Positions 21,581-52,300 of a DNA stretch of 64,000 nucleotides are shown piece after piece. Position numbers and translations under genes: made by a program. Location of the stretch: the NCBI GenBank assembly GCA_019828565.1, contig JAHDYR010000053.1, forward strand, positions 346,214 through 410,213, written 5' to 3'. This DNA comes from Carpediemonas membranifera BICM (taxonomy: Eukaryota > Protista > Fornicata). Numbering within the stretch: the stretch's first letter is position 1; every line of letters begins with the position of its first letter. The notes beneath the pieces were generated by a model that saw nothing but the letters and a program-made list of their open reading frames with translations, was not told the DNA's origin and ran no database searches.

Positions 21581-21676
21581 TGTGCTGTGTCAAACAATGT
21601 GTTTATACTGCGCAACACTGCCCTGTCTCCCTCCTACTCACGTCTTAAGTCGGTAGGGAGATCGTCTTCTTCAGGG
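21581..21676 (-). mobile_element. Relic 3' end of element C family (shortened LTR 21581-21617, PPT and internal sequence)
   Basis: Reverse complement is near-identical to 35144-35245, with about 6 bp missing from the LTR. Confidence 0.85.
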
Positions 21677-22385
21677 TTGTCACAATCAATCAGCTTCGTT
21701 CCTTGACATCACGATCAATCTCACTCAAATTCCGTCTCCTCATGTTTTATGCGGCGCAGTAACACACCAATCTCATGGCGTCTGCTCACGCAGGTCAAGT
21801 TATAGGTTATAGGTGTTCGCACTCAACCCCGTCGGGCTGGGTAGAGTTCAAGTTACGGGGATGACACCGGGCAGGGTTAGAGCAGTACGGAGGAAGCTGG
21901 ATGCGGTGGAGTGCAGTTGGTGAGTAGTCCTCGAACATCACTTTGGTGAGCTGCGAATCATACCAACCTCGGATTCAGAATGACTGGGCAGCGAGGCTTG
22001 CATCAGCCCTGCTGGTGTGCTCGTATCAAGCGCTCTGGATGTGAGGGGAAACATGGAACAAAGGCCTCGGATCGTCGCCAAATTCTCATTTATGCTAAAC
22101 TGCACTTTCGTATACTTAAGCTGCACAAATGTCACAGTGGCACGTCACGCTGTCGCTCGCCAGGGAGCAGTTTAGTGTCGCTGTAACGAGAGCGTGAAAC
22201 AGAGAAAAGGAATGCTATAACTGTCATTGCGACACCGTGGAAGCCTGCACAAGCATTGGACTCTTCGTATCCGACAACTTGGACGACTTTACGTATTTAA
22301 ACCATTTACTGGCCTTCTCCTGGCAGAATTCTCAAAACTGGTCGCATGCATTGTGAGATCACGCATGGCTATTGAGTGGATATGA

Positions 22386-25300
22386 TCAGGCTACAGCCAA
22401 TGCATGAAGACGTATGAGATGCCGAGGGGCGGCTTCCAGTGCAAGCTCGTAGTTCTGGTGCCAATTCGGGGGTAGGGGAGCTTCAGGCGCCGGGCTTGGC
22501 TCATTCACCTCAGCAGGCACCGCTGGCCCTGGTCCATGGTCTGGGTCGGGGGACCACTCAGTGGGGGTGGGCACGTCTGCTGTGGGGTAGACGTTGAAGT
22601 AGTGGCCGTGGCGGAACCCGACGCCGTCGGTGAAGGCGATAAAGCGCGAGGCGACATACTGCGTTGGATACGAGCAGTGGAGCACGAGCTTGTCGCTCGT
22701 ATCGTCGTGCTGGGACAGCTCGAGGTAGAAGCGCTCGATGGACCGGTGCACGCTGCCGCCGGCAGAGACACAAGCATACTGGATCAGCTTGAACTGGCTG
22801 ACGGTCTCTGCTCTGACCCGCCCCGACAGGTACAGCTGGATCGCCCAGAGTGCGGGCAGGTTGACGAAGTTCTTACCCTCGAACATCCCGCGGAGCTCCT
22901 CGTGGGTGTACCCCGTCTCGGTCAGGTCGATAGGGGCACTGTCGCACCCCAGCAGTGCCCGGGCGGCGGCGCGGGTCCATTCGGGCTCGTTGCTGAAGAG
23001 GGTCGGGTCCAGGTTGTGTAGGGCGAAGAAGGCGCAGTCGCCTCCACCAGCGTTGTTGCGGTAACGGGCATTACCGAGCGCGAAGCCATCGTGCAGCTCC
23101 GAGCTTTGTGCGTCCAGTACCTGGAACAGGCTGATGTCGAGCGGCGGGTGGGGCAAGGCGGGGAGTGCCGGGCGATGCTGCAGCTGTGGGAATGCCCTGT
23201 GGATGTGATTGAGGACGCCTTCCCCTAAATCAATAAAAGGAGTGGCGTGTGCCGCATGAAGCGCGTTGACGCGCCCCAGTGGAAGGAGCGGGTCGGCGCC
23301 GTGATCGAGCAGCCAGTGGGCGAAGCCTTCCCGACCCCCCTGAATGGCGGCGACGAGCGCGGTTGTGCCTCGATTGACAAGGTTGATGTCGACCTTCGCC
23401 TTCAGAATCGCGTCGCACATCGCAGGCCTCCCCTCAATAGCCAGCAGCGGGTGGCCGTCAGGGAAGGCGTCGTCGACGAGGCCACCAGTCTTGAGCAGCG
23501 CGGCGAACACCTTTGCCTGGCCGCTTATGAACGCGTTGTACAGGGGCGACCGGCCCTCACGGTCGAGGCAATTGAGGACGACGGGGCCGAACTTGTCGCG
23601 CCTGAAGAGGGGTTTAGACCGGATCCTACGGACGTTGCCGCTGATGACGTGGGCATGGAAGGCGTCGCTCCTCTCCAGCGCCTCCCTGACGCGGTCTTTT
23701 TCTTTCAGGGCGGGCATCGGGTCCTTGGCGAGTGAAAGAACCGGGGTGAGCCGGTCGATGTCGGTCTGAATCTCCTGGATTTGCGAGGCGAGCTTCCGCA
23801 ACTGGTCAGGGGATGAGGCCGACTTGAACTCTGCCAGAAGGCGGCTGGCGCGGGGCACGTCGGCGTCAGTGTACAAAGCCATGTACACACTCGCCAAGAC
23901 GACGACTTTGTCCTTGGCAGGCGGGATGCTCGCGTCGATAGGTGCGATGGCGGGCACAAAAGACCCGACGTTGACGGCGATCTTGCTGTAATCCTCGGGA
24001 TGGTCGAGCAGGTTAACGCACATCTTGTGGTTGTTGGCCTTGGCGATATCCCTGGGAAGCACGGTCCCAACAGAGAGATACGGGTTTGCCCCAGCCGCAA
24101 TGAGCAGCCTGAGGACATCGAAGTGTCCCTCAATCGCTGCATGAAACGTGGCAGTGAAACCCAACTTATCGTGCGCGTCGACTTCACACCCAGCCTGCAG
24201 CAGAAGGTGGACACACGTGACACGGTTCGCTTTTGCTGCCCAGTGGAGAGCGGTCCACTCTTCCGCGCTGGTCGCGTTGACGTCAGCACCATGCTGCAGG
24301 AGGGCGTGAACGATGGCGTCATGGCCTTCGAATGCGGCAGCACCCAGGCATGTGACGCACTTGCTGCTTTTGTATGTGCTAGCTCCAGCAGCCAGCAATA
24401 TCATTACGCTATCAATTCGACCATGATTACAGGCCAAGTGAAGCGGTGTGCGCTCATCTTCGGTGACAAGGTCGAGCGTCGCCCCGGCCTTGATAAGTAG
24501 TGCCACGATCCTGTCTTGGTTGTAATATGCAGCTGTATGCAGAGGTGACCACCCGTCGTCATCAGCCACGTCGACCATATCTGGATCGGCGTTCAACAGC
24601 ATCTCTGCGATGTCAACAAACCCCCTATCGGCAGCAATATGGAGGGCGCTGCAGCCACTGGGAAGAGCCACTGTGCAGTCGGCACCAGCATCGAGAAGGA
24701 GCCCGATGATGGTGGTGAACCCCTCGAAAACCGCGGCAATGAGCGGCGTTCTGCCAGTATTCGTGCGCACATTCGGGTCAGCGCCTTCATTAAGCAGGAA
24801 TCGAACGGATTTGGTCTCGCCGCTGACACACGCTATGTAGAGAGGGGTGGCGCCATCGTCGGTCGGTTGATTAATCAAATTTTGCTTTCCGGCAAATGCA
24901 ACAAGTCCGGCAAATGTAACGTCCCCGTCCCGAACGGCTTCGTGGAACGCAGTGTCGCCCTTGGAAGACCAGGCCTGGTAGCCTAATAACGGTCGCAAAG
25001 TGAATGCGAGACTCAATCTGTATATAGTACTAATGCTCTTTGCAAGAAAAGAAAACTCCCAATACCAAGTCTTCACGCTGGCAAAGAGACCTGATCTCAA
25101 GGGATGGACGCCTTGGAACGCAACCTGCTCCACATAATAATGGTATCCAGAAGAGGTGGTCCAGATCATGTCCAGCGAGGGCGGGGGTCGGACGGGGCGG
25201 GTGGCGAGCGAGCCCACCTCGAAGTCTAGCGGGCCGCATAGCTCTGGGTGGTCGAGCAGGTCGACGCAGTCCGTGTGGCCCTCTGTCTGGGCGATATCCC

Positions 25301-26861
25301 TGGGGAGCCGGGGCCGGCGTATTCGAGACGTCCTACCAGAGATGGCCAGGTCGGCCCCTGCCGCCACGAGAAGCTTGACGACGTCTGTGTATCCTTCTCT
25401 TGCAGCTATGAAGACTGCTGTGCGACTAAGCGGACCTCTTGCATCAACATCGCACCCAGCCTGCAGTAGTAGTCGGGCACACGTAACACGGTTCCTCTTG
25501 GCGGCCCAATGGAGTGGGGTTAACCCACCCAGTTCGGCCGCGTTGACATCGGCGCCGGATTGAAGGAGGAGCATAATGATGTCGTCAAGCCCATTATAGG
25601 TGGCGATCGTCAGACAAGTCCCGAATGAGCAGTGGTAGGCCGCGTTGGCCCCCGCATTCAGTAGCTCTTGGGCACTCTCGACGTGACCACCACGGCATGT
25701 CAACAGCAGGGCCGTACAACCTTTCTTATTCCGCAGGTCGAGGGTCGCCCCGGCATCAATGAGCAACTTGATGGCCTCGGTGTGACCATTATCTGCTGCT
25801 TCCATGAGTGGCGTGCCTAAACTGCGATCGCGACGATCGACGTCAGCGCCATTCTCGAGCAGGAGTCGGGCACAGTGAGCATGCCCGTTCATGGAAGCTG
25901 CGTGTAACGGCGAGAAGCCAGTCTTCTTGGCCACGTCGACCATGTCGGGAGTAGTGTCCAGAAGCAGCTTAACAACGTCGGCATGACCAAAGTAGGACGC
26001 GAGATACAGGGCGCTTGCTCCATCCGGACGTATCTTGGTGCAGTCGACTCCTGCTTCGATAAGCACGCTCGCGCACTCTGTGTGGCCATTGCTGAACGCT
26101 GCCATGAGTATGGTCTTGCCGTCATTGGCGCACAGCTCGGGATCCGCACCGTGCTCGAGGAGGAGGCGGGCGACTCCGGTGTGGCCATTAACTGCGGCCG
26201 CAAAGAGAGGGGTCCATCCGTCGCTGTCAGGGCCGTCTAGGATGGATTGATCGGCGTCCAGCAGCAGCTTGGCGATCTCTTCGGAGCCGTTCTCAGCAGC
26301 CATATGCAGGGCGTTGTGGCCGCTTGGACGGGCCTTGTTGCAGTCGGCTCCTGCTTTGATAAGTATGCTAACACATTCTGTGTGGCCCTTAATGCACGCT
26401 GCCATGAGGGCGGTATCGCCATCATCGTCCTGCAGGTCGAGAGCCGCCCCGGCATTAATGAGCAACTCTATGATCTCGGTGTTGTTCTTAATTGTTGTAG
26501 CGATGAGGGGAGTCCGATCAGCAGCACCGCGGAGGTCTGGGTCCGCCTCAGCTTGGAGCAGGTCTCGAACAAGGTCGACATTGCCCGCGACCGAGGCCTC
26601 AAACAGTGGAGACCACTGCTGTGGTTCATCATCTGGTGTCTTGCTAGACTCTGTCTCCTCCAGTGACGCTGTCCGCACCGTCTCGGGGCCCAGCGGGCCT
26701 GTTGCTGGGGAGGAGCTTGGCCTCGACGGAGCAGATGAGCTGACGTCCGTTGGGACGAATGGAGAGAGAGTATTTGTCGTACATGCGTCGTTTTCTTCAT
26801 TGAGCGCGCTATCTGAAGGCGCGTTATTGTTCTCAGCTTGCATGTTTTCGGGTTCTGTCAC
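22386..26861 (-). CDS. Large ankyrin-repeat protein with a C-terminal OTU-like cysteine protease domain
   Basis: Over 20 TPLxxA...LLxxGAD repeats; GGGDCAFFAL Cys box and RHGHY His box. Confidence 0.85.
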   Translation of the reverse strand: MTEPENMQAENNNAPSDSALNEENDACTTNTLSPFVPTDVSSSAPSRPSSSPATGPLGPETVRTASLEETESSKTPDDEPQQWSPLFEASVAGNVDLVRDLLQAEADPDLRGAADRTPLIATTIKNNTEIIELLINAGAALDLQDDDGDTALMAACIKGHTECVSILIKAGADCNKARPSGHNALHMAAENGSEEIAKLLLDADQSILDGPDSDGWTPLFAAAVNGHTGVARLLLEHGADPELCANDGKTILMAAFSNGHTECASVLIEAGVDCTKIRPDGASALYLASYFGHADVVKLLLDTTPDMVDVAKKTGFSPLHAASMNGHAHCARLLLENGADVDRRDRSLGTPLMEAADNGHTEAIKLLIDAGATLDLRNKKGCTALLLTCRGGHVESAQELLNAGANAAYHCSFGTCLTIATYNGLDDIIMLLLQSGADVNAAELGGLTPLHWAAKRNRVTCARLLLQAGCDVDARGPLSRTAVFIAAREGYTDVVKLLVAAGADLAISGRTSRIRRPRLPRDIAQTEGHTDCVDLLDHPELCGPLDFEVGSLATRPVRPPPSLDMIWTTSSGYHYYVEQVAFQGVHPLRSGLFASVKTWYWEFSFLAKSISTIYRLSLAFTLRPLLGYQAWSSKGDTAFHEAVRDGDVTFAGLVAFAGKQNLINQPTDDGATPLYIACVSGETKSVRFLLNEGADPNVRTNTGRTPLIAAVFEGFTTIIGLLLDAGADCTVALPSGCSALHIAADRGFVDIAEMLLNADPDMVDVADDDGWSPLHTAAYYNQDRIVALLIKAGATLDLVTEDERTPLHLACNHGRIDSVMILLAAGASTYKSSKCVTCLGAAAFEGHDAIVHALLQHGADVNATSAEEWTALHWAAKANRVTCVHLLLQAGCEVDAHDKLGFTATFHAAIEGHFDVLRLLIAAGANPYLSVGTVLPRDIAKANNHKMCVNLLDHPEDYSKIAVNVGSFVPAIAPIDASIPPAKDKVVVLASVYMALYTDADVPRASRLLAEFKSASSPDQLRKLASQIQEIQTDIDRLTPVLSLAKDPMPALKEKDRVREALERSDAFHAHVISGNVRRIRSKPLFRRDKFGPVVLNCLDREGRSPLYNAFISGQAKVFAALLKTGGLVDDAFPDGHPLLAIEGRPAMCDAILKAKVDINLVNRGTTALVAAIQGGREGFAHWLLDHGADPLLPLGRVNALHAAHATPFIDLGEGVLNHIHRAFPQLQHRPALPALPHPPLDISLFQVLDAQSSELHDGFALGNARYRNNAGGGDCAFFALHNLDPTLFSNEPEWTRAAARALLGCDSAPIDLTETGYTHEELRGMFEGKNFVNLPALWAIQLYLSGRVRAETVSQFKLIQYACVSAGGSVHRSIERFYLELSQHDDTSDKLVLHCSYPTQYVASRFIAFTDGVGFRHGHYFNVYPTADVPTPTEWSPDPDHGPGPAVPAEVNEPSPAPEAPLPPNWHQNYELALEAAPRHLIRLHALAVA

Positions 26862-27561
26862 AGGAGTGGATTCTGCTTGGATGCGTGTGTCTTGATTATA
26901 ATTACTGTCACTAGAAGTGCACGTTCCAACACAAGTACCTGGACGACAAGGCGTAGATCGCGAGATCGGACACCCAAGCTACTTGTGACATAATCTGCGA
27001 ACGGTTGGTAATCTGCGAAACGACCTCGGCCACAGCAAGTCCCGTGTTCCGATGATTCGCAGGTCTCGCATAAGTCTGCTGGGGTGCTTGGGGTCGTCTA
27101 TCACCAGCTTGACCCAGGGAGGAAGAGGATGCTCTGCTTGGTCTTCGATACAGGGGCCCAAAAGGATATAAAGACTGTTTACGACTTTCGCAGGAAAAGG
27201 GCACAGTCTCGAAGTGAACCTGAACTTAGCCGAACCGAGCCGACTCTTGAATTCCGGTACAGGGTAAGAAAACCATTGAACACGCAAACAGGTGTCGATC
27301 CCAGCCCTGAACACAGGCTCGCTGATCCCCCCAGCAAGCTCGCTCTCAGGCCACATTTCGAGATTCCGTCTGAACCCGACTTGGACTGCCGGCTCAATGT
27401 ACTGCAGCGCCCTGATGTGGGCGAGCAGGGTCGACCCGAGGGACTGCTATCATTGAATGAGCGGGACACCATCATCCGGATTCAATGCCTCTTCACACCC
27501 AACATCTCAGTTCCGCCCAGGCCACCCAACCCGCATTCAGCTACTTTACTGCGACTCGGCC

Positions 27562-28803
27562 TCACTTGAGAGACCCGTGGCCATACAGCCTGATAGTACC
27601 GTCTTCGTCACCCGTTATTATTCTCACAGCCTCCAGAGCCGATGGTCCAATCGCCATTGTACACACCACAGGCGTATCGACCTTAAATTTCATGTAAGAT
27701 CTCGACTTATCTCTCCTAAATCTCGTAAACACAGGATTAATGGTCGGCACGTATTCATAGTGCCTCGGCCATAAATACACCCAACTCGTATCCCCGCCCG
27801 AGCAGATCAGATCACCCGACGTCGTCGTCGAGGGACGTGACACAGTTGTCTTTGTCGTATGACCGAGGAACGTTCTCTGGCTGAGGAGCGTGTCGGCGCT
27901 AAACACTCTAATCCTGCAGTCCGCGGATGCTGCGATGATGCTGTTCTCGTCAGGGAAAGCGATGCCAGTGAACCGGCCCACGGTGGGCTTATGCCACCCA
28001 GTGAGAGGTCGGAGGTCGACGGCATCATAAACTTTAAGATGCCCGGTCATCGTGCCTACCACAAGCTTTGTCCCGCCTGGACAGAAGCGCACGACGGTGG
28101 GCATCCCCGGAGTCTGGATTTTCGCGAGAACTTTCCTCGATTCAGCGTCAATGAGTCGCAGCATGCCGTCAGCTGCCGCGGTGACCACGTACTGGTCCAT
28201 TCTAGGGTGTATATCGGCCGACATGACGTGAGCTGGGTGGGTCAGGGTCTCCACCGCAGTCTCCTGGGTTGGGTGCCAGATGCGGGCCGTCCCGTCTGCT
28301 GAGGCAGTCACGAGGAAGCCGGAGACTCCCCAGGAGATGTCTAGGATGTCAGCTGTGTGTCCTGTGTGCGTTGTCGCGGGTGTGAGGCGGTCACCGACGT
28401 TCCACAGACGGACTATAGTGTCTCTGCCGACTGAAGCGAGTTGCTTCTTGTCAGGAGATCTGGCGAATGCCCAGATTGCACCGATGTGGTCTTTGACTGT
28501 CTGGAGCTCCTGGATGGCCGTGAGGACGGGCTCCGAGATTTGATGGTGTGAGACCTTGACGCGGCGGCCGGGAACGGCAGGTGATGGCGCACGAAGCGGT
28601 GGAGGCTTGAGACTAGCGCGTTTTAGCTGCGTGAGAGGCGCTGTCAGTGCCGCGGTGTCGCTGTCCTCGAGAAGGTTGATCACCTGGCCGGAATCGAGGT
28701 CTTTGATGAGGAACTGCTGCTCTACTCCTGTACAAATCGCATCTTCACCATCAGAATGATCAGAGGCGGTTTCAAACTCGTCGTTATCTTCATCTGAGGA
28801 CAT
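27562..28803 (-). CDS. WD40-repeat protein (WDR44-like)
   Basis: FLIKDLDSG motif; HIGAIW...VRLW and GHTADILDISW...ARIW repeats; acidic FFAT-like DEFETASD N-terminus. Confidence 0.8.
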   Translation of the reverse strand: MSSDEDNDEFETASDHSDGEDAICTGVEQQFLIKDLDSGQVINLLEDSDTAALTAPLTQLKRASLKPPPLRAPSPAVPGRRVKVSHHQISEPVLTAIQELQTVKDHIGAIWAFARSPDKKQLASVGRDTIVRLWNVGDRLTPATTHTGHTADILDISWGVSGFLVTASADGTARIWHPTQETAVETLTHPAHVMSADIHPRMDQYVVTAAADGMLRLIDAESRKVLAKIQTPGMPTVVRFCPGGTKLVVGTMTGHLKVYDAVDLRPLTGWHKPTVGRFTGIAFPDENSIIAASADCRIRVFSADTLLSQRTFLGHTTKTTVSRPSTTTSGDLICSGGDTSWVYLWPRHYEYVPTINPVFTRFRRDKSRSYMKFKVDTPVVCTMAIGPSALEAVRIITGDEDGTIRLYGHGSLK

Positions 28804-31819: not shown

Positions 31820-31862
31820 TGTGCTATTGAAGGGTCGAACAATGTGTTTATACTGCGCAACA
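31820..31862 (-). mobile_element. 43-bp solo LTR of element C family
   Basis: TG...CA termini; flanked by 5-bp TSD ACAAT (31815-31819 and 31863-31867); 41/43 identical to 35203-35245. Confidence 0.9.
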
Positions 31863-34694: not shown

Positions 34695-34717
34695 CGAGAT
34701 TAACAAGTTGATCTCAA

Positions 34718-35245
34718 TGTTGCGCAGTATAAACACATTGTTCGAACCTCCAGACAGGGCCTGAAAGGAACGATCAAAGTGCCAAACTGTACAACATCAT
34801 CCGTCCGTAGACGAATGTTGGCGGTTAGCCAATTGATGATACTGGAATGATGTTGGAAGGCGCGTGATCGATGTGCGACTGAACGGAGAGCCACTGAGCT
34901 CATCTTCCGTGGCAAGAGAACGCCACAGGATGTTCTCTGCAGCACTCTTGTCCCGATGATCAACATTCAGAGCAGCTGGTCATTGATGAAGATGACATAT
35001 AAGAGCCGACGATGAACACCATTACCAGCATATACAAGTGTAGAAGTGAATTTAATGTGGAATAGAAGACAATGAGACGACGTGTGAGCGATTGTGAAGT
35101 TTGCAGCTGTGCTGACGTCCACGAAGAAGACGCTTTGTGGAAGCCCTGGAGAAGACGATCTCCCTACCGACTTAAGACGTGAGTAGGAGGGAGACAGGGC
35201 AGTGTTGCGCTGTATAAACACATTGTTTGACCCTTCAATAGCACA
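34718..35245 (+). mobile_element. Element C: non-coding, TRIM-like or deleted LTR element (5' LTR about 34718-34756, degenerate; 3' LTR 35203-35245)
   Basis: Direct repeats TGTTGCGC[A/T]GTATAAACACATTGTT[C/T]GA; PPT 35181-35202; TSD CTCAA at 34713-34717 and 44360-44364 (right copy split by element A). Confidence 0.8.
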
Positions 35246-35248
35246 CTC

Positions 35249-35335
35249 TGTTGTGATTTCGTAATCAGTTGATGTGTATTTAGTGTGTGTATTTAATCTA
35301 AATGAAGTACCATCCACAGCGCTTTATACGCCAAA
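35249..35335 (+). repeat. Element A 5' LTR (87 bp)
   Basis: Identical to 44271-44357. Confidence 0.95.
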
Positions 35336-35351
35336 TTGATCAATTTGAGCT

Positions 35352-35937
35352 ATGCAGTCCGATTATGACGCTCGTATAGCGGCACTAGAAGAGACTATAG
35401 GTAATCTGGTCACTCTCGTGAGTTCTCTCGCGAAGAAGCCCGATGTTCGTGCCCATGATGTCCCTGATTCGGATTCCACGCTTGATTCTTCATGCCTTGA
35501 GTCTTTCGAGACTATCTTTAAGCTCTTCCCCTGCGACTTCAAGCCGGGATCGATCGAACGCCAGATTTTCCATTGCGCTCTCCCCTCCTCGAAGGAAGGG
35601 TGGTTCCGCTTGATCCTCGACTATGACGCACACCTTATCAAGCATCCCAATGTTGCTTCGATCGCCGCTTCGTTGCTCCCTCATTTGGGGACCATCTCCC
35701 TACTGCCTCAATTCACCAGGGTCTCTGCCGTCCTTAAGCTCGCCCAGGGCAAAGAGGCTTACGTCACTCCGGAGAGTGAGGTCACTTACACCCAAGCTCG
35801 GGACAGTCTGAACGAAGCTCTGAATTCCCTTATCTCTCAGGCCGTGTTGCCCGACGACAATCTCATCGTCGAGGCTTGGCTCTCCAAGTTCTTGGAAGCC
35901 GCTAAGCCTTCAGCAACCGCCAACTCGATCGCCCTTG
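35352..35937 (+). CDS. Element A gag, N-terminal part (joins 40525 after removing B)
   Basis: Removing B and one CTTG restores the frame ...NSIAL-AKFAHRV... Confidence 0.9.
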
Positions 35938-35998
35938 TGTCATAAGGCATCCACGTCCGCAGTTTATGTAAATGTTCCAATCTCTTCGCCCCGGCACA
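35938..35998 (+). repeat. Element B 5' LTR (61 bp)
   Basis: Identical to 40460-40520; contains GTAAAT at 35968-35973. Confidence 0.95.
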
Positions 35999-36014
35999 GT
36001 GATCACTTTCCGAA

Positions 36015-37625
36015 ATGAATAATTGGATTCCGCCATCACTATCGGACTTCTCTAGAGAGTCCGTTCGCGCGTTCAAACGCGCCCTCACGTTCGCGCAGAA
36101 GCATGCTCCTACCACAACCGTCATAACGGCTTACGAGTGCCTCACCGAGGATCAAGTCAGTCATGTCCGATTTGTCCGCAACGTCGACGTCGAAGCACTC
36201 AACGACGCAGAACTTCTCGCCGAAATCACCGCTCTTTCTTTCCCGAGAACCCTTGAGAAAACCATCCAAGAAATCCGGGCCCTCACGCAGGACCGAACCA
36301 AGTCCACGATCGAGGCCGTATCTCGTCTCATGGCTGAGACCGAGGAGCTGCGCTCCCACGCCCATGCCCTTCTCAACGCCGAGCTCGGCGCCAAGCCAGA
36401 GCCCGAGCCCGCCGAGGTGGATGAAGACGAGGCCGCCCTCAGCAAGGTCATCACCCAGAAGCCAGACAGCACGCCGAGTGAGCAGGACACCCCGAGAAAA
36501 GCCAGCCCCACCCGCGGACTCGATAAGATCATCGCCAAAGCTTTTATCGCCGCCCTTCGCCCGGTCTCACTTGCCAACCGTATTCAGCAAAAGTGGGACC
36601 TCTCTGGCGCCCGGGACATCGATAGCTTATTTGTGCACACGCGCGAGCTCATACTGCACGCCATTGACGCCCGTGAAGTCCTCGGAAGCGTGATTCAAGA
36701 CATATCCATCACATCCTCCAGCACGAGCTCCATCACGAGCTCCAGCACTGGCCCGAAACATAGCCAGAACGCCAACACCAGATCCCGCCGCGAGCGCCGG
36801 CGCCCTCCTCCATACGCGTGCTCCTGTGGAGGCATGCACTGGAAGGCTGATTGCCCGCACCGCGGCAGCACGCCCGGACAGCCCCAGGCTACCAAAGGCC
36901 ACCCCGCCGCGGCCCGCGACGCCAGACCGGCACATCAGCCGCAACGCCAGCCCCAAGCGGCCAACAAACCGGCCCAGCCACAGCCGGCACCAGCTGCTCA
37001 GAAGCAGCAGCAACAGTCATCCCAGCAGCCACAGCCTCGCCCCGACGAGAGACGCGCTGGGAACATGGTGCTCCGGGACAGATCCAAGCTGATCAACTCT
37101 CGTCCAGGAGTCCACGAAGTCGAAGTCGCACACAATGCTTGTGATGATGCCTTTATCGAAGAAGTTGCCGCTTCAACTGCATTCTCAGTTAAGGGAGCTG
37201 TGAATGACCAAGAACAGGTGATATTGATCGATAGCGGCTCCGCAATCACGATCATCTCCACAACCTCCGTTAAGACGCTCCAACTCGTCACACATGAGCT
37301 TGAAAAGCCATTTACTGTTCAGTCCGTTACCAATGAGCCCATCCTCATCACTCACTACGTCCAAGCGCGGATCACGTTGCCCAGCACATCTGGAAACGTC
37401 ATCGTCGATCTCATCCTCTACATCATGACGCGCGCCACTGAACGTGTGCTCATTGGATGCGACGTGCTTCGCGCGCTCGGTTATCTCTCCGAGAGTGGCC
37501 TCCACATCCCACTTCTTCCGGATTCACGCCCGGAGGACGCCACCGATGGCCTCCCACTCCACAAGTACCTCGACGCCCCCCGTCGAGGCCGTCTCCTCAA
37601 GCGAGTTTCACACCGACGCGTGTGA
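36015..37625 (+). CDS. Element B gag-protease
   Basis: Zn knuckle variant CSCGGMHWKADC; aspartic protease ILIDSGS...VLIGCDVL. Confidence 0.9.
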   Translation: MNNWIPPSLSDFSRESVRAFKRALTFAQKHAPTTTVITAYECLTEDQVSHVRFVRNVDVEALNDAELLAEITALSFPRTLEKTIQEIRALTQDRTKSTIEAVSRLMAETEELRSHAHALLNAELGAKPEPEPAEVDEDEAALSKVITQKPDSTPSEQDTPRKASPTRGLDKIIAKAFIAALRPVSLANRIQQKWDLSGARDIDSLFVHTRELILHAIDAREVLGSVIQDISITSSSTSSITSSSTGPKHSQNANTRSRRERRRPPPYACSCGGMHWKADCPHRGSTPGQPQATKGHPAAARDARPAHQPQRQPQAANKPAQPQPAPAAQKQQQQSSQQPQPRPDERRAGNMVLRDRSKLINSRPGVHEVEVAHNACDDAFIEEVAASTAFSVKGAVNDQEQVILIDSGSAITIISTTSVKTLQLVTHELEKPFTVQSVTNEPILITHYVQARITLPSTSGNVIVDLILYIMTRATERVLIGCDVLRALGYLSESGLHIPLLPDSRPEDATDGLPLHKYLDAPRRGRLLKRVSHRRV

Positions 37626-40467
37626 GATACACGAGCTCTCCACCAAGGCCCAGACCGACGAGCTACATTCGATCCTCCGTCGGTTCGATCACCTATTCGA
37701 CCCCGTCATAAGCAAACAGCCGTGCTCGTTTGCCCCTATGCGCATCCCGCTTTACGACAACGCCCCTCCGATCCGTCTTCGCCCGCGCAACCTACACCCG
37801 AAGAAGCTGGAGTGGCTGTTGCCATACGTCGAGCGCCTGCGCCAGGACGAGATCACACAGCCCTCTGAGGGGCCTTACGCAAGCCCCATCGTCCTGGTCG
37901 CAAAGGGCGACGCCTACCGTCTCTGTATCGACTACGGCCGCCTCAACTCTTGGACAGTACCCGACCGGCACCCGATCCCCAACATGCGAGAACTCCTCAA
38001 CCTCGCGTCGGGCTGCACACGCTTTGCGACGCTAGACCTGACGTCGGGCTACTGGCAGGTGGCCATGCACCCAGACGACGTGCCTAAGACGGCCTTCACC
38101 GCCCCGGGCGTCTACGAGGAATTCCTCAGGATGCCGTTCGGCCTTTGCAACGCGCCTTCTCACTTCCAGCGGGAGATCGAAGGCATGCTCGCCCCACTGT
38201 TGTACAAGGGCGCCAACCCCTACATCGACGACATATTCATCTACGCCCGTGACGATGACTCCTTCCTACGCATTCTCCGCGACCTGCTCACACGCGCGGA
38301 CGCTGCAGGCGTTCAGTTCAGCGCCAAGAAGGGAGTCTTCGGCACCACCAGCGCCAAGATTGTCGGCTTTACGGTCGACCAGGCCGGAGTACACGTCGAC
38401 CCAGCCAGGACCCAAGCCCTACGCGATCTACCTGCACCCACCAACGTCCACGAGCTTCGCGTAGTCCTCGGACAGTTCCAGTACCTCGCATCATTCGTTC
38501 CCCATACACGACACGAGTACATGAGACCTCTCAACGATCTTCTGCAAAAGGACCGTCTGTGGGAATGGACAGCGGAGCACGACGCCGCTTTCGACGGCCT
38601 GAAGACCCTGTTCACTGACGATCTCTTTATCGCACATCCGGACGCCGACGCCGACTGGACGCTCGAGACAGACGCTAGCAACATCGGAGCAGGCGGCGTA
38701 CTATGGCAGACAAAGGACGACAAGACACAGGTCCTCGCCTACTTCTCTCACACATTCACGTCAACCCAGTCGCGCTGGGCCACGTGTGAGCAGGAGCTAT
38801 TTGCCATTGTCTTTTGCCTTACACACCCGACCCTGTCACCCCTCCTACGCCTGAAGAGGTTCCTCCTACGGACCGACCACCGTAATCTTATTTACATGAT
38901 CGCCAAGTCATCCGAGAACGACAAGATCAACCGGTGGAGACTGACATTAGCAGACTACAAGTTCGATGTCGAGCACGTTCCCGGCCTACAGAACGCAGTC
39001 GCAGACGCGCTGAGCCGCTGCGGTCACTCGACCTCGCCCACTGTCGCAGCCATCACGACTGACTCCCGCTACCATGACACACTCATCAAACACCAGACAG
39101 ACGACTCTACCGTCTCCAAGCTGACCGTAGACAGCGACGGTCTTCGCCGCAAGGACGGCCTCGTCGTCATCCCTACTTCAACCGTGTGCAGACCCCTCCG
39201 AAAGGAGCTGATACAGATCGCCCACAGAGGACACCACGGCGCCAAGGCTACCATCGAACGCCTGAGAGCAGACGGCTATACCTGGACAGGCTGCACAACA
39301 GATGTCGAGGAGTTCATCGCCTCATGTGACGAGTGCCAGAAAGCTCGCCTACGCAACTTCGCCGAGGCAGAGCTCCGCACAACAGCAGTGTACAAACCGT
39401 TCCACACTGTCGCAGTGGATACTATTGGTCCAATCCCGGCAGACGCAGTCGGCTCCAGATACATCACAGTTATGGTCGATATGTTTACTCGCTACACTGA
39501 GTTGGCCGCGACGGACGAGAACACAGCTGATGCAGCGTCAGAGGCCCTCTGGCGCCAGGTGATTACCCGTCATGGGACTCCCCTGTTCATCAAGTCCGAC
39601 AACGGGCCTGAGTTCACCGGCAACGTCGTCAAGGCCCTGCTCGAAAGCGCGGACATCACCCAGCAATTCACCCTCCCCTACCACCCTCAGTCGAATGGGC
39701 TGGTAGAGCGTCGTAACGCGGAGGTCATGAAGCATCTTCGCTGTTTGATCCTCCAATCCGACAAGTTCTCCCGTTGGAGCGACCTCCTTCCGGTAGTTCA
39801 GCTGCTGCTGAACACAACCACCTGCAGCGCCACTGGGGTCACACCCCACGCCATGCTGTATGGAGACCAACTCGACCCCAGCTCCACAGTCGCTAGAATC
39901 CTCCGACCGAGCGACAATGACTCGCCCCTTGCCTCAGCCTCAGCCTACATCACTTTACTTCGAGCCCACCTCTCCAAGTTGACCTCTAGGGCGGCCGAGA
40001 AGCAGCGCGAGACTGTAGACAAGCGCCTCGCCAAGGCCAACGCCGACCGCCAGCCGACTAGCTTCAAGGAAGGCGACCTCGTCCTGCTCAACCGGACGAA
40101 GACCCCAAAGCTGCATGGCTTCGCCGGCCCGTTCAAGATTCTCGCCATCAAGGACAACAACACCCTTCAGCTGGTCGACCTTTTCGAGAGCGCCCCCTTC
40201 ATGGCTCACGTAGACCAGGTCCTTCCTTTCAACACCAAGTCGGGGCTCAGCCGCCTGAAGAACCTCGCCGCCTCCGACGAGCAGACGTACGTCGTGCAAG
40301 GCATCGAGAAGCACCGTCGCCGCAACGGCACACTGCAGCTCCTCGTCTGCTGGGAGGGCGACTACGATCCCACATGGGAACCCGCTGACGGGCTCCGCCA
40401 CGTCACTGCGGCACGTGACTACCTCAAGTCCCACAAGCTCAAGCTTAAGGGGGGTAGGATGTCATAA
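37582..40467 (+). CDS. Element B pol: RT, RNase H, integrase, chromodomain
   Basis: LDLTSGYWQ, MPFGLCNAP, YIDD; TDAS RNase H; HH-CC and D-D35-E integrase; GPF motif; YVVQGIEKH...WEG...TWEP chromodomain. The start given is the inferred frame junction. Confidence 0.95.
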   Translation, partial: VEAVSSSEFHTDACEIHELSTKAQTDELHSILRRFDHLFDPVISKQPCSFAPMRIPLYDNAPPIRLRPRNLHPKKLEWLLPYVERLRQDEITQPSEGPYASPIVLVAKGDAYRLCIDYGRLNSWTVPDRHPIPNMRELLNLASGCTRFATLDLTSGYWQVAMHPDDVPKTAFTAPGVYEEFLRMPFGLCNAPSHFQREIEGMLAPLLYKGANPYIDDIFIYARDDDSFLRILRDLLTRADAAGVQFSAKKGVFGTTSAKIVGFTVDQAGVHVDPARTQALRDLPAPTNVHELRVVLGQFQYLASFVPHTRHEYMRPLNDLLQKDRLWEWTAEHDAAFDGLKTLFTDDLFIAHPDADADWTLETDASNIGAGGVLWQTKDDKTQVLAYFSHTFTSTQSRWATCEQELFAIVFCLTHPTLSPLLRLKRFLLRTDHRNLIYMIAKSSENDKINRWRLTLADYKFDVEHVPGLQNAVADALSRCGHSTSPTVAAITTDSRYHDTLIKHQTDDSTVSKLTVDSDGLRRKDGLVVIPTSTVCRPLRKELIQIAHRGHHGAKATIERLRADGYTWTGCTTDVEEFIASCDECQKARLRNFAEAELRTTAVYKPFHTVAVDTIGPIPADAVGSRYITVMVDMFTRYTELAATDENTADAASEALWRQVITRHGTPLFIKSDNGPEFTGNVVKALLESADITQQFTLPYHPQSNGLVERRNAEVMKHLRCLILQSDKFSRWSDLLPVVQLLLNTTTCSATGVTPHAMLYGDQLDPSSTVARILRPSDNDSPLASASAYITLLRAHLSKLTSRAAEKQRETVDKRLAKANADRQPTSFKEGDLVLLNRTKTPKLHGFAGPFKILAIKDNNTLQLVDLFESAPFMAHVDQVLPFNTKSGLSRLKNLAASDEQTYVVQGIEKHRRRNGTLQLLVCWEGDYDPTWEPADGLRHVTAARDYLKSHKLKLKGGRMS

Positions 40468-40520
40468 GGCATCCACGTCCGCAGTTTATGTAAATGTTCC
40501 AATCTCTTCGCCCCGGCACA
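40460..40520 (+). repeat. Element B 3' LTR
   Basis: Identical to 35938-35998. Confidence 0.95.
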
Positions 40521-40524
40521 CTTG

Positions 40525-43500
40525 CGAAGTTTGCGCACCGTGTATCACTCATCGTCCGCATCCTAGGCATGCGAGACTCCTACTCCGAGAAGGCTCTCTC
40601 CTCTGTTATCAAGGCCACCTTGCCGAAGACCCTACAAGCCCATTGGTCCCGGATTGCCCGTTTAGGCAAGTCTGCTTTCGATGAAATCCTGGCAGACATG
40701 GTCGCCAACGAGGAACGACTCGAAGATGCTCGCGTCCTTGTGGATACTCGCGCTCGACTCATTGAGTTTGAGACATCGTCGACTGTCAAGCCTGACAGTT
40801 CCTCTGCCAAGAAGCCTGAACCCTTCGTTCCCACGGTCAAGCCCAAGCCCGAGGTTCATCAAACTGGTCCCTCCTCGGCCCAGACTCAGGTTGTCGCACC
40901 CACTGGTCAAACCTCTGCTAAGGGTTCGTCCACTGTCATCGCTGATCTCACTGACAAGTCGGTCAGTCCCGGCGAGGGCTTCGTGTGGTGTCCATTCCAC
41001 AAGAAGTGGGGTAAGCACTCGACTGACAAGTGTTATCTGAACCCGAACCCTCCGGAGCGCGGCCATTCGAACGCCATCGGTACTCATAGCCAGCCCGCCA
41101 ACGTTGTCATAACGATCGATGGTCACGAGACCCACCTCCCCGCCCTTGCTGATCAGTGCAGTGAGGCTTCTTACCTACGTCTGCGTGAGTGGTCTGATAT
41201 GACTAAGGACCTATTCCCGGCAACTCGTCCCTCGGGACACATCATGATCTCCGCCAACAACTCCGAGACGATGGCCCTCTTCGATGCGAAGTTACTGATA
41301 ACGCACAAGAGACCCGGCTGCGTTCCTTCCGCTATCTCCGAGACATGTGTGGTGCATGTGATGCCGGACTTGAATGTCCCTCTCATCCTCTCTGAGGAGA
41401 TCTCGTCTCACTTGGGGCTCCTCAACCCCGACGCGGTTACACTTGGTCGTCCCGAAACCTCTGACGCTTCACACGATCCCCTTGCAGACATTCCTTCTTC
41501 TGTCGACTCATTAATCGAGACTGCTACTGCGGACACGATTCCTGCTATAAAGCAGCGTGTCTGTTCCCTTTTGAATCGGTATCGAGAGTTGTTTGAGAAG
41601 CCAGACTCCCTCCCAGCCAAGGCCAGGCCCATGATAGTGAGGCTGCGGGAAGGTGCCGAACCGGTTGCCGCGAAGCCCTACAACATGTCCAAGCCTCTGA
41701 GAGAGATGACCGACGACATCATCGACGACCTTCTCGCTCGCGACATTATCGAGCGCAGCTCGTCCCCCTGGGCCTCGCCTCTTTTCTATGTTCACCAGAA
41801 GGATAAGGAGAGAATGGTCTTGGATTATGTTCAAGTCAACGCCGTGACGGTGCCGGAACCCGTGCCTCTCCAAGGCTGCGATACCTTGCTAAGACAGGCT
41901 GCCGGTATGAAGTACTTTGCCTCATTAGACCTCCGTTCCGGGTACCACCAGTTCGAGCTGCACGAAGACTCTCGCTACCTGACTTCCTTCGTCTGCCACA
42001 GCGGGCAATTCCAGTTCAAGCGGATCCCATTTGGCCTAATGAACGCCCCCGGCCATTTCCAGAAGGTGATGTTGGAGATCTTTGATGACATCGTGAGAGA
42101 GCGACGCTTGATCATCTACGTTGATGACCTACTGGTAGTCGGCCGGAATGCCGAGGAATTCCTCGAGAACTTGGAGGCTGTCTTGGACCGCCTCGTCTCT
42201 CACCATCTCCGTTTGTCCGGAAACAAGTGCAAGTTCGGCACTGACTCGGCTCGTTTCTTGGGTTTCATCGTGAACGAGAGTGGCATGACTATCGACCCGG
42301 ACAGATTGCTGGATATCGACAACCTGCAGGAGCCTAGATCTCTCTCTGAGTTGCGCGCGATCCTCGGCATATTCAACTATTGTCGTCAATTCGTTCCCCG
42401 ATATACTGAGGTCGCCCATCCTCTCTTGCGCCTACTCAAGGAGACCCCCGTTCCCTTCTCTCTGGACGACTCAGCCCGCGAAGCTCTGTCCGATCTGAAA
42501 GAGATTCTCCGGAATGCGGACATGCTTCATCATCCTGACTATAACCATCCCCTTAGACTCCAGACCGATGCTTCGGGCTATGGACTCGGCGCCGTTTTGT
42601 ACCAAGTCATTGATGGCGAGACCCGCTTCATTTCTTTCTTCTCTCGTGCCCTCTCCGGCTCGCAGTTGAGCTGGTCTATAACTGAGAAGGAGGCTGCTGC
42701 CCTCTACGAAGCCGTCTTGAAGTTCGACAGTTTCCTCAGAGGAACTTCCTTTGTTGCTGAGGTTGACCATAAGAACCTCACCTTCTTGACTGCTAGCAAG
42801 TCGGAGAAGGTCAACAGATGGAAGAACAGACTAGGAGAGTACATGTTCGAGATCGCTTACATCCCCGGAGAGACTAATGTCCTTGCTGACACTCTGTCTA
42901 GGATGTTCCAACCGAAAACTTCCTTCTGTAACGCTGTCCAGTCTCGCCTCCCCGTTCTATCTCAAGAGGAGAAGGTTGATCTATTCCGCAAGGTCCACGG
43001 CAACGCTCTTAGCGGTCACAAGGGAGTAGCCGCCACTGTTCAGACCCTCAAAGACCTAGGCCACGAGTGGGAGAACATGTCTTCGGATGCGGCTACCTTC
43101 ATTTCCAGCTGTGGCATCTGTCAGAAATTCCGTCTCCAGAAGACTGTCAAGACGCAACTTGGCCACCTTGTCACCGACACCCCTTTTCACACGGTGTCTA
43201 TCGATGCCATTGGTCCCCTGCCAGTAGACGAGTCGTCTGGATCCAAATATGTGCTGACAATTATTGACAACTTCACAAGATGGGTCGAGCTGGTCCCACT
43301 GAGTGACCTTGGCGCTCTCAGCGCTGCCGAGGCCTTGGTGGAAAGAGTGTACTCACGTCACGGTTTGCCCCACTTTTTGCACTCCGACAACGGCTCCCAG
43401 TTCGTCAACGACACCATTGCTGCGTTGAACCGGTCTCTGCATATCGAACACACCACCATTTTCCCTTACGTCTCCCAGCAGAACGGTATAGCTGAAAGGG

Positions 43501-44286
43501 CCAATCGCGAGGTTAGGCGTCATCTGAAGACCCTCTTGCCTTCCCTTGGAAGACGTTGGAGCGACTGGAGTTCCTGTCTACCTCTGGTCCAGTTTGTCAT
43601 GAACAACGCCAAGCACAGGATCATTAACACCACGCCCTACGCCATGCTCTATGGCGATGTCCTTTCCCCATCCAACAGCCTGTTACCGAGGACGTTGACC
43701 CCTAACCTTGACTCTTACGAGTCCACCTCGTCTTATACCTCCGGGTTGCTGAGCAGATTGAGGGAGATCCACGACCTCGCCAGAGCCACCCAGTCCTCTG
43801 CCTTGGACTACCCCTCAGTAGAGCCTGATGTCTTCAAGCCTGGCGACTATGTCCTGCTGGCCCCACCTAAGGGTCCGCGTAGCAAGACGCTCCCGAATTA
43901 CCGAGGCCCATTCATGGTGAAAGACTCGCTTCCGAACAACCAATACGCCTTACAGGCCTTTTTCAGGGAGGGCGGAGCTGGTGTCACATGTACACCGTCT
44001 GAGGAGGTTCCATCGATCCTTCTTAACTGAGGAGGAGATATCTGAGCTCGCCAAGTTTGATGATGATGATGAATTATACGTTGTCGAATCAGTAGTGAGC
44101 CATTCGACCGATGAGGACGGGAACATCGTTTTCAGACTACGCTGGAGCGGTTACGAGCCTGAAGAAGATACTTATCAGTGCTATGATGAGGATGTGAGAG
44201 GAAACGAACAAGTTGAGTCGTATATCGACGCACACAAGTTGCGCGGCAAGCTCTTTGGAGAAGACGGAGGTGTTGTGATTTCGTAA
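40525..44286 (+). CDS. Element A gag C-terminus and pol (PR, RT, RNase H, IN, chromodomain), with a +1 frameshift at T5 43959-43963
   Basis: LDLRSGYHQ, IPFGLMNAP, YVDD, TDASGYG, HKG...CGIC, SDNGSQF, GPF; chromodomain YVVESVVSH...RWSGY in ORF 43981..44286. Confidence 0.93.
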
Positions 44287-44357
44287 TCAGTTGATGTGTA
44301 TTTAGTGTGTGTATTTAATCTAAATGAAGTACCATCCACAGCGCTTTATACGCCAAA
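44271..44357 (+). repeat. Element A 3' LTR
   Basis: Identical to 35249-35335. Confidence 0.95.
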
Positions 44358-44651
44358 CACTCAAGCAAACCCTAAACTGCGATCATTAATCACGGATGGT
44401 CAGCGAGCTCGCATGGGTATGAACCAGTAGCACTGCACCTCATATGTTCCTCCAAATCATATGGCGAGGATTTTCAAGGCTGCTGATTCCCATCCCTTTG
44501 TGATTACAACATCTACAGCTGCCGCCAGAGTCAAGAATACACAAAACGAAGCAAAGAACTCTATCAGACGTCCAAAAGTATTAACATAGCGCGTAAAGAG
44601 TGTGCAAGCCAAGCATGTTACACTCGACATGCTCGATGATTGGCAACCCAG

Positions 44652-49315: not shown

Positions 49316-52300
49316 ATGGACGAGCATCAAGAAGTGCTCTATTCCGATAACAAGGCAATAGACACACCTTCTGAGATCCCAGAGGGCCTTCAGAATGCAA
49401 TTGAGAACGTTGTACAGCAAGAGAGCAAAATTATGAGTGATTATGAACAGTTCCCCGCTACAACGGGCAACAATGAACACATTAATGGCTTTGTGAGTCC
49501 TACTAGTGGACAGGTTGACCTCGCATCTGAGCCCGTCGCTGAGCCCGTCGCTGCTCCCGTCGCTGCTCCCGTGGCCGAGCCCGTCGCTGAGCCCGTCGCT
49601 GCTCCCGTGGCCGAGCCCGTCGCTGAGCCCGTGGCCGAGCCCGTCGCTGAGCCCGTCGCTGCTCCTGTGGCCGAGCCCGTCGCTGAGCCCGTCGCTGCTC
49701 CCGTCGCTGCTCCCGTGGCCGAGCCCGTCGCTGCTCCCGTCGCTGCTCCCGTGGCCGCTCCCGTCGCTGAGCCCGTGGCCGAGCCCGTCGCTGCTCCCGT
49801 CGCTGCTCCCGTGGCCGAGCCCGTCGCTGAGCCCGTCGCTGCTCCCGTGGCCGAGCCCGTCGCTGAGCCCGTGGCCGAGCCCGTCGCTGAGCCCGTCGCT
49901 GCTCCTGTGGCCGAGCCCGTCGCTGCTCCCGTCGCTGCTCCCGTGGCCGCTCCCGTGGCCGCTCCCGTCGCCGAGCCCGTCGCTGCTCCCGTCGCTGCTC
50001 CCGTGGCCGAGCCCGTCGCTGCTCCCGTCGCTGCTCCCGTCGCTGCCCCCGTGGCCGCTCCCGTCGCTGAGCCCGTCGCTGCTCCCGTCGCTGCTCCCGT
50101 GGCCGAGCCCGTCGCTGCTCCCGTCGCTGCTCCCGTCGCTGCTCCCGTGGCCGAGCCCGTCGCTGCTCCCGTGTCCGCTCCCGTGGCTGAGCCCGTCGCT
50201 GCTCCCGTCGCTGCTCCCGTGGCCGCTCCCGTCGCTGAGCCCGTGGCCGAGCCCGTCGCTGAGCCCGTCGCTGCTCCCGTCGCTGCTCCCGTGGCCGAGC
50301 CCGTCGCTGCTCCCGTCGCTGCTCCCGTGGCCGCTCCCGTCGCTGAGCCCGTCGCTGCTCCCGTGGCCGAGCCCGTGGCTGAACTCGTCGCTGCTCCCGT
50401 GGCCGCTCCCGTCGCTGAGCCCGTCGCCGCTCCCGTGGCCGAGCCCGTCGCTGCTCCCGTGGCCGAGCCCGTGGCTGAGCCCGTCGCCGCTCCCGTGGCC
50501 GAGCCCGTGGCTGAACTCGTCGCTGCTCCCGTGGCCGCTCCCGTCGCTGAGCCCGTCGCCGCTCCCGTGGCCGAGCCCGTCGCTGCTCCCGTGGCCGAGC
50601 CCGTCGCTGCTCCCGTGGCTGAGCCCGTGGCCGAGCCCGTCGCTGCTCCCGTCGCTGCTCCCGTGGCCGAGCCCGTCGCTGAGCCCGTCGCCGCTCCCGT
50701 GGCCGAGCCCGTCGCTGCTCCCGTGGCCGAGCCCGTGGCTGAGCCCGTCGCCGCTCCCGTGGCCGAGCCCGTGGCTGAACTCGTCGCTGCTCCCGTGGCC
50801 GCTCCCGTCGCTGAGCCCGTCGCCGCTCCCGTGGCCGAGCCCGTCGCTGCTCCCGTGGCCGAGCCCGTCGCTGCTCCCGTGGCTGAGCCCGTGGCCGAGC
50901 CCGTCGCTGAACCCGTCGCCGCTCCCATCGCTGAGCCCGTGGCTGAACCCGTCGCTGCTCCCATCGCTGAGCCCGTGGCCGAGCCCGTGGCCGCTCCCGT
51001 CGCTGCTCCCGTCGCCGCTCCCTGTCCGCTGCTCCTGTCGCTGCTCCCGTGGCCGCTCCCGTGGCTGAGCCCGTCGCTGCTCCCGTCGCTGCCCCCGTGG
51101 CCGCTCCCGTCCGCTGCTCCTGTCGCTGCTCCCGTGGCCGCTCCCGTGGCTGAGCCCGTCGCTGCTCCCGTCGCTGCCCCCGTGGCCGCTCCCGTCGCTG
51201 AGCCCGTCGCTGCTCCCGTCGCTGCTCCCGTGGCCGAGCCCGTCGCTGCTCCCGTCGCTGCTCCCGTCGCCGAGCCCGTCGCTGCTCCCGTCGCTGCTCC
51301 CGTCGCTGCCCCCGTGGCCGCTCCCGTCGCTGAGCCCGTCGCTGCTCCCGTCGCTGCTCCCGTGGCCGAGCCCGTCGCTGCTCCCGTGGCCGAGCCCGTC
51401 GCTGCTCCCGTCGCTGCTCCCGTCGCTGCCCCCGTGGCCGCTCCCGTCGCTGAGCCCGTCGCTGCTCCCGTCGCTGCTCCCGTGGCCGAGCCCGTCGCTG
51501 CTCCCGTGGCCGCTCCCGTCGCTGAGCCCGTCGCCGCTCCCGTGGCCGAGCCCGTCGCTGCTCCCGTGGCCGCTCCCGTCGCCGAGCCCGTCGCTGCTCC
51601 CGTCGCTGCTCCCGTGGCCGAGCCCGTCGCTGCTCCCGTCGCTGCTCCCCGTGGCCGCTGCCCCGTCGCTGAGCCGCTCCCGTCGCCGCTCCCGTGGCCG
51701 AGCCCGTCGCTGAGCCCGTCGCTGCCCCCGTGGCCGTCGCTGCCCCGTGGCTGAGCCCGTCGCTGCTCCCGTCGCTGCTCCCGTGGCCGAGCCCGTCGCT
51801 GCTCCCGTCGCTGCTCCCGTGGCCGAGCCCGTCGCTGAGCCCGTCGCTGCTCCCGTGGCCGCTCCCGTGGCCGAGCCCGTCGCTGCTCCCGTGGCCGAGC
51901 CCGTGGCTGAACTCGTCGCTGCTCCCGTGGCCGCTCCCGTCGCTGAGCCCGTCGCCGCTCCCGTCGCTGAGCCCGTCGCCGCTCCCGTGGCCGAGCCCGT
52001 CGCTGCTCCCGTGGCCGCTCCCGTCGCTGAGCCCGTCGCTGAGCCCGTCGCTGCTCCCGTGGCTGCTCCCGTGGCTGAGCCCGTGGCCGAGCCCGTCGCT
52101 GAACCCGTCGCCGCTCCCATCGCTGAGCCCGTGGCTGAACCCGTCGCTGCTCCCATCGCTGAGCCCGTGGCCGAGCCCGTGGCCGCTCCCGTCGCTGCTC
52201 CCGTGGCCGCTCCCGTCGCCGAGCCCGTCGCTGCTCCCGTGGCCGCTCCCGTGGCTGAGCCCGTTGCCGCTCCCATCGCTGAGCCCGTGGCCGAGCCCGT

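Follow-up and report, generated by a model that had tools for sequence, protein, structure and literature searches.

How does an LTR retrotransposon start reverse transcription when the position at which a tRNA primer would bind is occupied by a palindrome? The question is raised by two elements, one nested in the other, within the 64,000-nt stretch of Carpediemonas membranifera BICM DNA analysed here (the window; all coordinates are positions in it). The host is gene-dense, with long uninterrupted open reading frames for eukaryotic proteins; its USP5 has 49% identity to one protein and about 25-32% to the remaining matches of near-full length. Comparing the window with itself revealed two pairs of identical direct repeats, which are the LTRs of elements that we call A and B. 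Element A (35249-44357) has 87-bp LTRs that start with TG and end with AA, not CA, and is flanked by a 5-bp target duplication. Element B (35938-40520) lies inside the gag gene of A and has 61-bp LTRs with TG..CA ends and a 4-bp target duplication. The features of the two elements are as follows.

35244-35248, + strand: 5-bp target-site duplication on the left of A, repeated on the right at 44358-44362
35249-35335, + strand: 5' LTR of A, 87 bp, TG..AA (self-comparison, sequence reading)
35332-35347, no strand: palindrome of A, 16 bp, of which 35335-35344 (terminal A, 8-nt core, T) is conserved in the family
35336-35351, + strand: leader of A, 16 nt, primer-binding position
35352-35937, + strand: 5' part of A gag, split by B; its end is the left 4-bp target duplication of B (35934-35937)
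35938-35998, + strand: 5' LTR of B, 61 bp, TG..CA
35998-36007, no strand: palindrome of B, 10 bp (terminal A, 8-nt core, T)
35999-36014, + strand: leader of B, 16 nt
36015-37625, + strand: gag-protease open reading frame of B
37429-40467, + strand: pol frame of B, stop to stop (RT, RNase H, integrase, chromodomain)
40288-40404, + strand: chromodomain of B (PF00385, E 2e-4)
40447-40459, + strand: polypurine tract of B, a purine-rich run ahead of the 3' LTR (sequence reading)
40460-40520, + strand: 3' LTR of B
40521-44030, + strand: remainder of A gag-pol (3' part of gag, RT, RNase H, integrase)
44077-44226, + strand: chromodomain of A, in a frame that differs from pol in the window copy (PF00385, E 6e-7)
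44257-44270, + strand: polypurine tract of A (sequence reading)
44271-44357, + strand: 3' LTR of A

A and B are young Ty3/gypsy retrotransposons with chromodomains. Pfam domains for RT, RNase H and integrase occur in gypsy order in both elements, and a Pfam protease is detected in B and not in A. The order protease-RT-RNase H-integrase, together with the LTRs, target duplications and polypurine tracts, places them in Ty3/gypsy. The chromodomain at the integrase end scores above the PF00385 cut-off in A and below it in B; in five relatives its E values run from 7e-5 to 0.12. The joint that A would have without B (35933 to 40521, with 4 ambiguous letters) is present in contigs of four out of four runs. 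We further note that contigs of all four runs differ by one base at 43959, near the A chromodomain that is out of frame with pol in the window copy, and that a copy of A lacking 41601-42937 is seen in contigs of X1 and X2. In B, gag and pol lie in different frames near a C run (near 37575), and the two closest relatives of B have a single open reading frame. LTRs (61-104 bp) and leaders (13-21 nt) are very short in the two closest hosts (A, B, L002-L010 and L021), and longer in relatives elsewhere.

At both 5' junctions a leader of exactly 16 nt, without TGG, separates the LTR from the gag ATG, as the initial annotation had described; every coordinate and letter that it gave for the two leaders and palindromes held on re-reading the sequence. 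Both palindromes take in the last A of the 5' LTR. That of A, at 16 bp, is the longest of 50 perfect palindromes of at least 10 bp in the window outside a tandem array. Palindromes of 10 bp, like that of B, occur 38 times in the same DNA, so the B palindrome alone is weak evidence. Position is more telling. A palindrome is counted here as in register if it includes the base preceding a given position and has its centre 4-6 nt beyond that position; by this definition the background is 0.19-0.31% of positions, or about 1e-5 for the A and B junctions together.

The two LTRs had been called otherwise unrelated, which overstates their difference, as both carry a TAAATG motif 24-31 nt ahead of the LTR end (35299-35304 in A and 35969-35974 in B, by sequence reading). 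Similar motifs occur in relatives, and 8 of 19 host open reading frames have [GT]TAAA no more than 50 nt past their stop codon. One contig departs from the A 3' LTR at 44334 with 28 unlike letters. From these letters and this contig, TAAATG/[GT]TAAA and 44334 are a candidate poly(A) signal and site. Contig starts at 35305-35306, considered as a transcription start, were discarded because they coincide with a 31-mer branch point of the LTR. Further contigs start at 35317 and 35332; contig ends mark no transcript start or end. Pairing of the A leader with its own LTR (9 bp, bulged) was also discarded, being no better than in shuffled sequences (0.70; 0.92 for B).

The palindrome recurs in the relatives of A and B. 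A protein search gave seven close relatives, and a metagenome scan (28 of 64 parts) gave at least 80 loci; among the matches listed, at least nine come from a single assembly, which contains the closest elements. Those nine loci yielded ten 5' junctions, all with a perfect palindrome made of the terminal A of the LTR, a core and a T. In a first RT tree, seven loci from other metagenomes grouped with the palindrome elements. When these seven loci and L020 were inspected, the junction was evident immediately in four (L020, L027, L052 and L078), each of which has the palindrome, and L061 was recognised later as a fifth. The four were examined after the first tree had flagged their group; L020 itself entered a later tree only. 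Two further scans added 16 loci, six of them with a junction of the same kind. Beyond A and B, 21 of the 22 visible 5' junctions among the matches listed share this layout. The palindrome is thus in register at 23 of 24 visible 5' junctions (22 tabulated plus L061) on the A+B side of the tree, among the matches listed, which bears out the family-wide conservation that the initial annotation had proposed to check. Relatives share descent, so these counts are not independent events; even so, 23 of 24 against a background of 0.3% excludes chance. The one visible miss, L093, sits on a long branch and has a 10-bp palindrome 40 nt before the ATG that does not reach the terminal A.

Twelve palindrome-side elements (L006, L007 minus, L009, L015, L066, L084-L088, L090 and L095) were left out of the counts because their contigs do not include the 5' junction. 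L003a and L094 are included in none of the trees, and L096 is weakly placed. The LTR ends are set by two copies with different flanks in four elements only (A, B, L008 and L021+); the remaining ends were placed by motif, with the ACA that precedes the core at 18 of 22 junctions as an independent check. Elements of the lineage are often nested in each other (L003, L007/L006, L021 and L010), as in the window, and the L010 element adjoins an RT-like frame of another type. L084-L091 and L093-L097 are eukaryotic retrotransposon contigs within bacterial genome bins, probably through binning contamination.

Analysis of conservation and variation at the site indicates that self-complementarity and register are selected, and that the letters are not. 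The 22 tabulated junctions hold 15 distinct cores in three lengths (8 nt in ten, 10 nt in ten and 12 nt in two), with an overall GC content of 22%. The centre of the palindrome shifts with core length, the terminal A is always paired, and the outer A:T pair is invariant. All 45 pair cells of the 8-nt cores are paired, 12 of them by double change (nine of the ten junctions, L021 minus being left out), as are all 60 cells of the 10-nt cores, 13 by double change (all ten junctions). The compensatory change that the initial annotation saw between A and B, keeping a palindrome across the LTR edge, is therefore a family-wide pattern: the 105 aligned cells contain 25 double changes and no mismatch, one-sided change or G-U change. 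None of 500 shuffles reached the covariation score, a figure that is not a probability since the shuffles ignore relatedness, and sliding the register abolishes the signal. In 20 of 22 cases the element or locus contains a single copy of the core, and one of the two exceptions is a circular overlap of L005.

Pairing does not extend beyond the LTR edge as a rule. Past the terminal A, 16 elements have no further pair, four have one, one has two and one has three, which is the chance level, and the C of CA is matched by the following base in only 4 of 18. The 16-bp length in A is therefore probably luck, and the LTR edge bounds the constraint, as it should if the site serves priming. The shared nTGATCAnTTT and the 16-nt leader had been put forward as common features; they are present in A and B, and the TTT, the TGATCA and the length are not family traits, with leaders in relatives ranging from 12 to more than 100 nt. 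A T at position +2, apparently invariant in 11 elements, is broken by L020, L027 and L096.

The palindrome and the TGG site fall on opposite sides of one branch. A careful RT-RNase H tree of 46 rows separates, with support of 100/99, a group of 15 palindrome rows and five rows then labelled junctionless from 26 others, which include all 12 TGG rows. A quick tree of 86 rows gives the same split with support of 93, unstarred. Both elements had been described as chromoviruses, which stands as far as the chromodomain goes; membership in the Tf1/sushi group does not stand, since a grouping of A and B with five sushi-like rows is rejected (p-AU 1.2e-7). The best trees, which are unrooted and use reference rows picked by source name or Pfam, place A and B outside the group of plant and sushi-like elements. 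The test does not reject a position as sister to all chromoviruses together (p-AU 0.46, again unrooted and with uncurated reference rows). Outgroup loci with a readable LTR end mostly have TGG sites. A palindrome preceded by CA occurs somewhere in non-coding DNA at 11 of 64 outgroup loci; of the three examined, that of L018 lies inside an LTR that ends at a TGG, and those of L037 and L062 showed no tie to an LTR end. One TGG-type outgroup locus, L024, has a 10-bp palindrome across the LTR edge (50-65) with TGG 6 nt in, which is either chance or possibly an intermediate state.

The comparisons that follow draw on portions of the cited papers. A plant survey distinguishes three primer types for LTR elements, namely a whole tRNA, half a tRNA and the element's own 5' end (PMC6317226). 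For the first, TGG is found within 0-5 nt after the LTR at none of the 22 junctions. The second is recognised by a complement to an internal tRNA segment; ARAGORN and Rfam searches, which gave no match, detect no tRNA gene in the window or at 19 loci. The third is exemplified by Tf1/sushi elements, which resemble A and B in being Ty3/gypsy elements with a chromodomain, no tRNA site, a short site directly after the LTR and a primer that is probably their own RNA (10.1101/2022.12.06.519325, PMC4600332, PMC6317226). They differ in that the 5' end of the Tf1 transcript pairs with the site in cis, for which the published criterion is a complement of at least 10 bp inside the 5' LTR (PMC6317226), and the A/B lineage has no such complement. 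The best anchored match is 3-6 nt in 11 LTRs, with 2 of 22 shuffle tests at p of about 0.04-0.05 and the rest higher, in a search run with no Tf1-type positive control; in the 38-444 nt of upstream DNA from 22 elements it is at most 7 nt. The initial annotation had found no convincing complement of this kind in A and B, and the wider search agrees.

Palindromes in this register have been described before, in the GalEa elements of fungi. These Ty1/copia elements carry a Conserved Hairpin Site, CHSeq1, of 9 bp directly after the 5' LTR, which is palindromic with the final A of the LTR, and have no tRNA site in the portions of the study cited here (PMC5445492). Two main sequences of a single length account for 85% of families, with a second arm, CHSeq2, 12-41 bp downstream; the authors suspect a role in priming, and no model known to them fits (PMC5445492). 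A and B share with CHSeq1 the central TGATCA and the exact register, and inclusion of the final A of the LTR extends to their lineage. GalEa elements nevertheless belong to the Copia superfamily, whereas A and B have the order protease-RT-RNase H-integrase-chromodomain, with integrase after RNase H. In contrast to the two main sequences of one length in GalEa, the A/B lineage has its 15 cores of three lengths. The CHSeq2 arm of GalEa is absent at all 22 junctions, where the best downstream match has 3-6 mismatches. Closer in classification are the Skipper elements of dictyostelids, Ty3/gypsy elements with a chromodomain whose priming is unexplained in the cited portion of the source (PMC5006619). 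Like the A/B lineage they are protist elements without TGG and without a complement in the LTR; they differ, by description and without being in our trees, in having a polypyrimidine stretch instead of a palindrome (PMC5006619). We found no description of a palindromic primer site in Ty3/gypsy elements in the open-licence literature. The feature is real and strongly conserved in a protist Ty3/gypsy lineage, with one published analogue, in another superfamily.

Starting from the observed palindrome, its register and covariation, and the observed absence of both TGG and a Tf1-type complement, we consider it likely, if only slightly on the favourable side of even, that the perfect palindrome at the primer-binding position of this Ty3/gypsy lineage primes the minus strand in trans: in place of a tRNA, its partner would be the same palindrome on another RNA molecule of the element. 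For a site that lies at the primer position, takes any letters, is symmetric through its centre and ends at the LTR edge, a second copy of the element's own RNA is the one RNA guaranteed to be complementary. Two element RNAs would form a duplex of 10-14 bp, and RNase H of the element would cleave one of the strands immediately ahead of the final U, at a point one pair within the duplex. Cutting of an RNA duplex by RNase H to make a primer has a precedent in Tf1, reportedly (the title of a 1996 paper by Levin) and in a description of that element (10.1101/2022.12.06.519325). Extension would start from the 3' end so created, which would pair with base +1, and the first DNA base would be placed opposite the terminal A. 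When the plus strand copied the primer, each arm would be rewritten from the other, and a mutation would be erased or mirrored. Such rewriting would explain palindromes that are perfect yet fast-changing, and the observed lack of G-U intermediates is what it predicts. The primer might come from a genomic RNA that is sacrificed or from a transcript with a short leader, one that begins at the terminal A and would give a Tf1-sized primer of 9-13 nt. A short transcript of this kind would solve both the cutting of one strand only and the plus-strand stop, and would explain why the symmetry ends there.

Several points count against priming in trans. The duplex is short and AU-rich (cores of 22% GC, with core duplexes of -8 to -15.5 kcal/mol), and its symmetry invites cuts in both strands, by which the site that the second strand transfer needs would be lost. 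If the primer were a long 5' fragment, it would have no obvious plus-strand stop. Arm rewriting assumes an inherited primer, whereas the primer of Ty1 is reportedly not inherited (the title of a 1994 paper by Lauermann and Boeke).

Other readings have to be weighed against the same evidence. The palindrome might serve solely as a dimer-initiation signal for packaging two RNAs, with the primer coming from an unknown host RNA or a distant segment of the element. Retroviral dimer initiation signals are palindromes, as discussed in the cited part of PMC5445492, and the covariation and dimer energies fit this reading equally well. In retroviruses and in the tRNA-mediated dimer of Ty3, which likewise pair two RNAs through a palindrome, the palindrome is additional to a tRNA primer site and lies in a hairpin loop or on the tRNA. 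In the A/B lineage the palindrome takes up the first 9-13 nt following the LTR, leaders go down to 12-14 nt with no other primer site there, a pure dimer signal would not have to keep its edge tied to the terminal A in cores of three lengths, and in 20 of 22 cases the core is unique within the element or locus; we regard dimerisation alone as unlikely. The initial annotation had proposed that the palindrome pairs two RNAs or folds back and that cleavage would supply the primer; the family test lends this proposal support, and the energies favour the dimer (-13 to -21 kcal/mol, against 0 to -3.6 for a hairpin, over 11 junctions). A single RNA cut after the palindrome and snapping back on itself as primer is accordingly improbable: hairpins of 4-7 bp do exist at some junctions, but these energies are weak, the central pairs would be loop and yet covary as strictly as the outer ones, and a cut in the template would part the primer site from the genome.

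We give slightly more weight than to the hairpin, although still little, to a DNA primer, in which plus-strand strong-stop DNA or cDNA ending in the palindrome would anneal to a fresh RNA and start the minus strand. DNA with such an end can pair with the RNA site, and it would symmetrise the arms, which fits the absence of G-U pairs; this route however requires an earlier round to start, and the inverted LTR tail that would have to be trimmed is found at none of the ends of A, B, L008 and L021. A host tRNA fragment or small RNA with a self-complementary end, one for each family, is very unlikely. Priming by half a tRNA is known (PMC6317226), but none of the sites starts with TGG, and 15 cores of three lengths, from about a dozen data sets, would each need a palindromic RNA end of their own. 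Hardly credible at all is that the palindrome acts in DNA, as a dimeric protein site or in integrase end processing, or is there by chance. Dimeric DNA-binding proteins favour palindromes, and L024 has one beside a TGG site; against this, the letters change freely, unlike those of a protein site, just one base of the conserved part lies within the LTR, and chance has to face 23 of 24 junctions against 0.3%.

Priming in trans by a second RNA, if it holds, bears on more than this locus. A broader reading, to which we give a little less than even credence, is that A and B represent a widespread, undescribed protist Ty3/gypsy lineage with a fourth mode of starting reverse transcription, namely self-priming in trans at a self-rewriting palindrome, possibly with a 9-13 nt primer from a transcript starting at the last A of the LTR, and that GalEa Copia elements reached the same solution independently. 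In the cited portions of their descriptions, GalEa and Skipper fit none of the three primer types and are unexplained (PMC5445492, PMC5006619); the lineage of A and B supplies what GalEa lacked, many sequences and three lengths. If the reading is correct, such elements would be freed from host tRNAs, very short LTRs and leaders would be allowed in a compact genome, and it would be clear why annotation tools that seek tRNA sites miss them.

The window holds other repeats beside A and B. A third, non-coding family with 43-bp TG..CA ends is present at 34715-35245 (+), 31820-31862 (-) and 21589-21685 (-); one copy is solo with a 5-bp duplication, and another is 531 bp long, with a right target duplication into which A inserted. 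The 5' end of this family matches its 3' repeat over 28 nt only and has no palindrome of the kind found in A and B. Its summed contig depth is about 24,000-28,000 per bin, compared with 35-45 for A gag, so the family must be either extremely numerous or expressed at a very high level. A 12-bp tandem array of about 7 kb (about 49424-56400) carries open frames of more than 2,300 codons on the minus strand.
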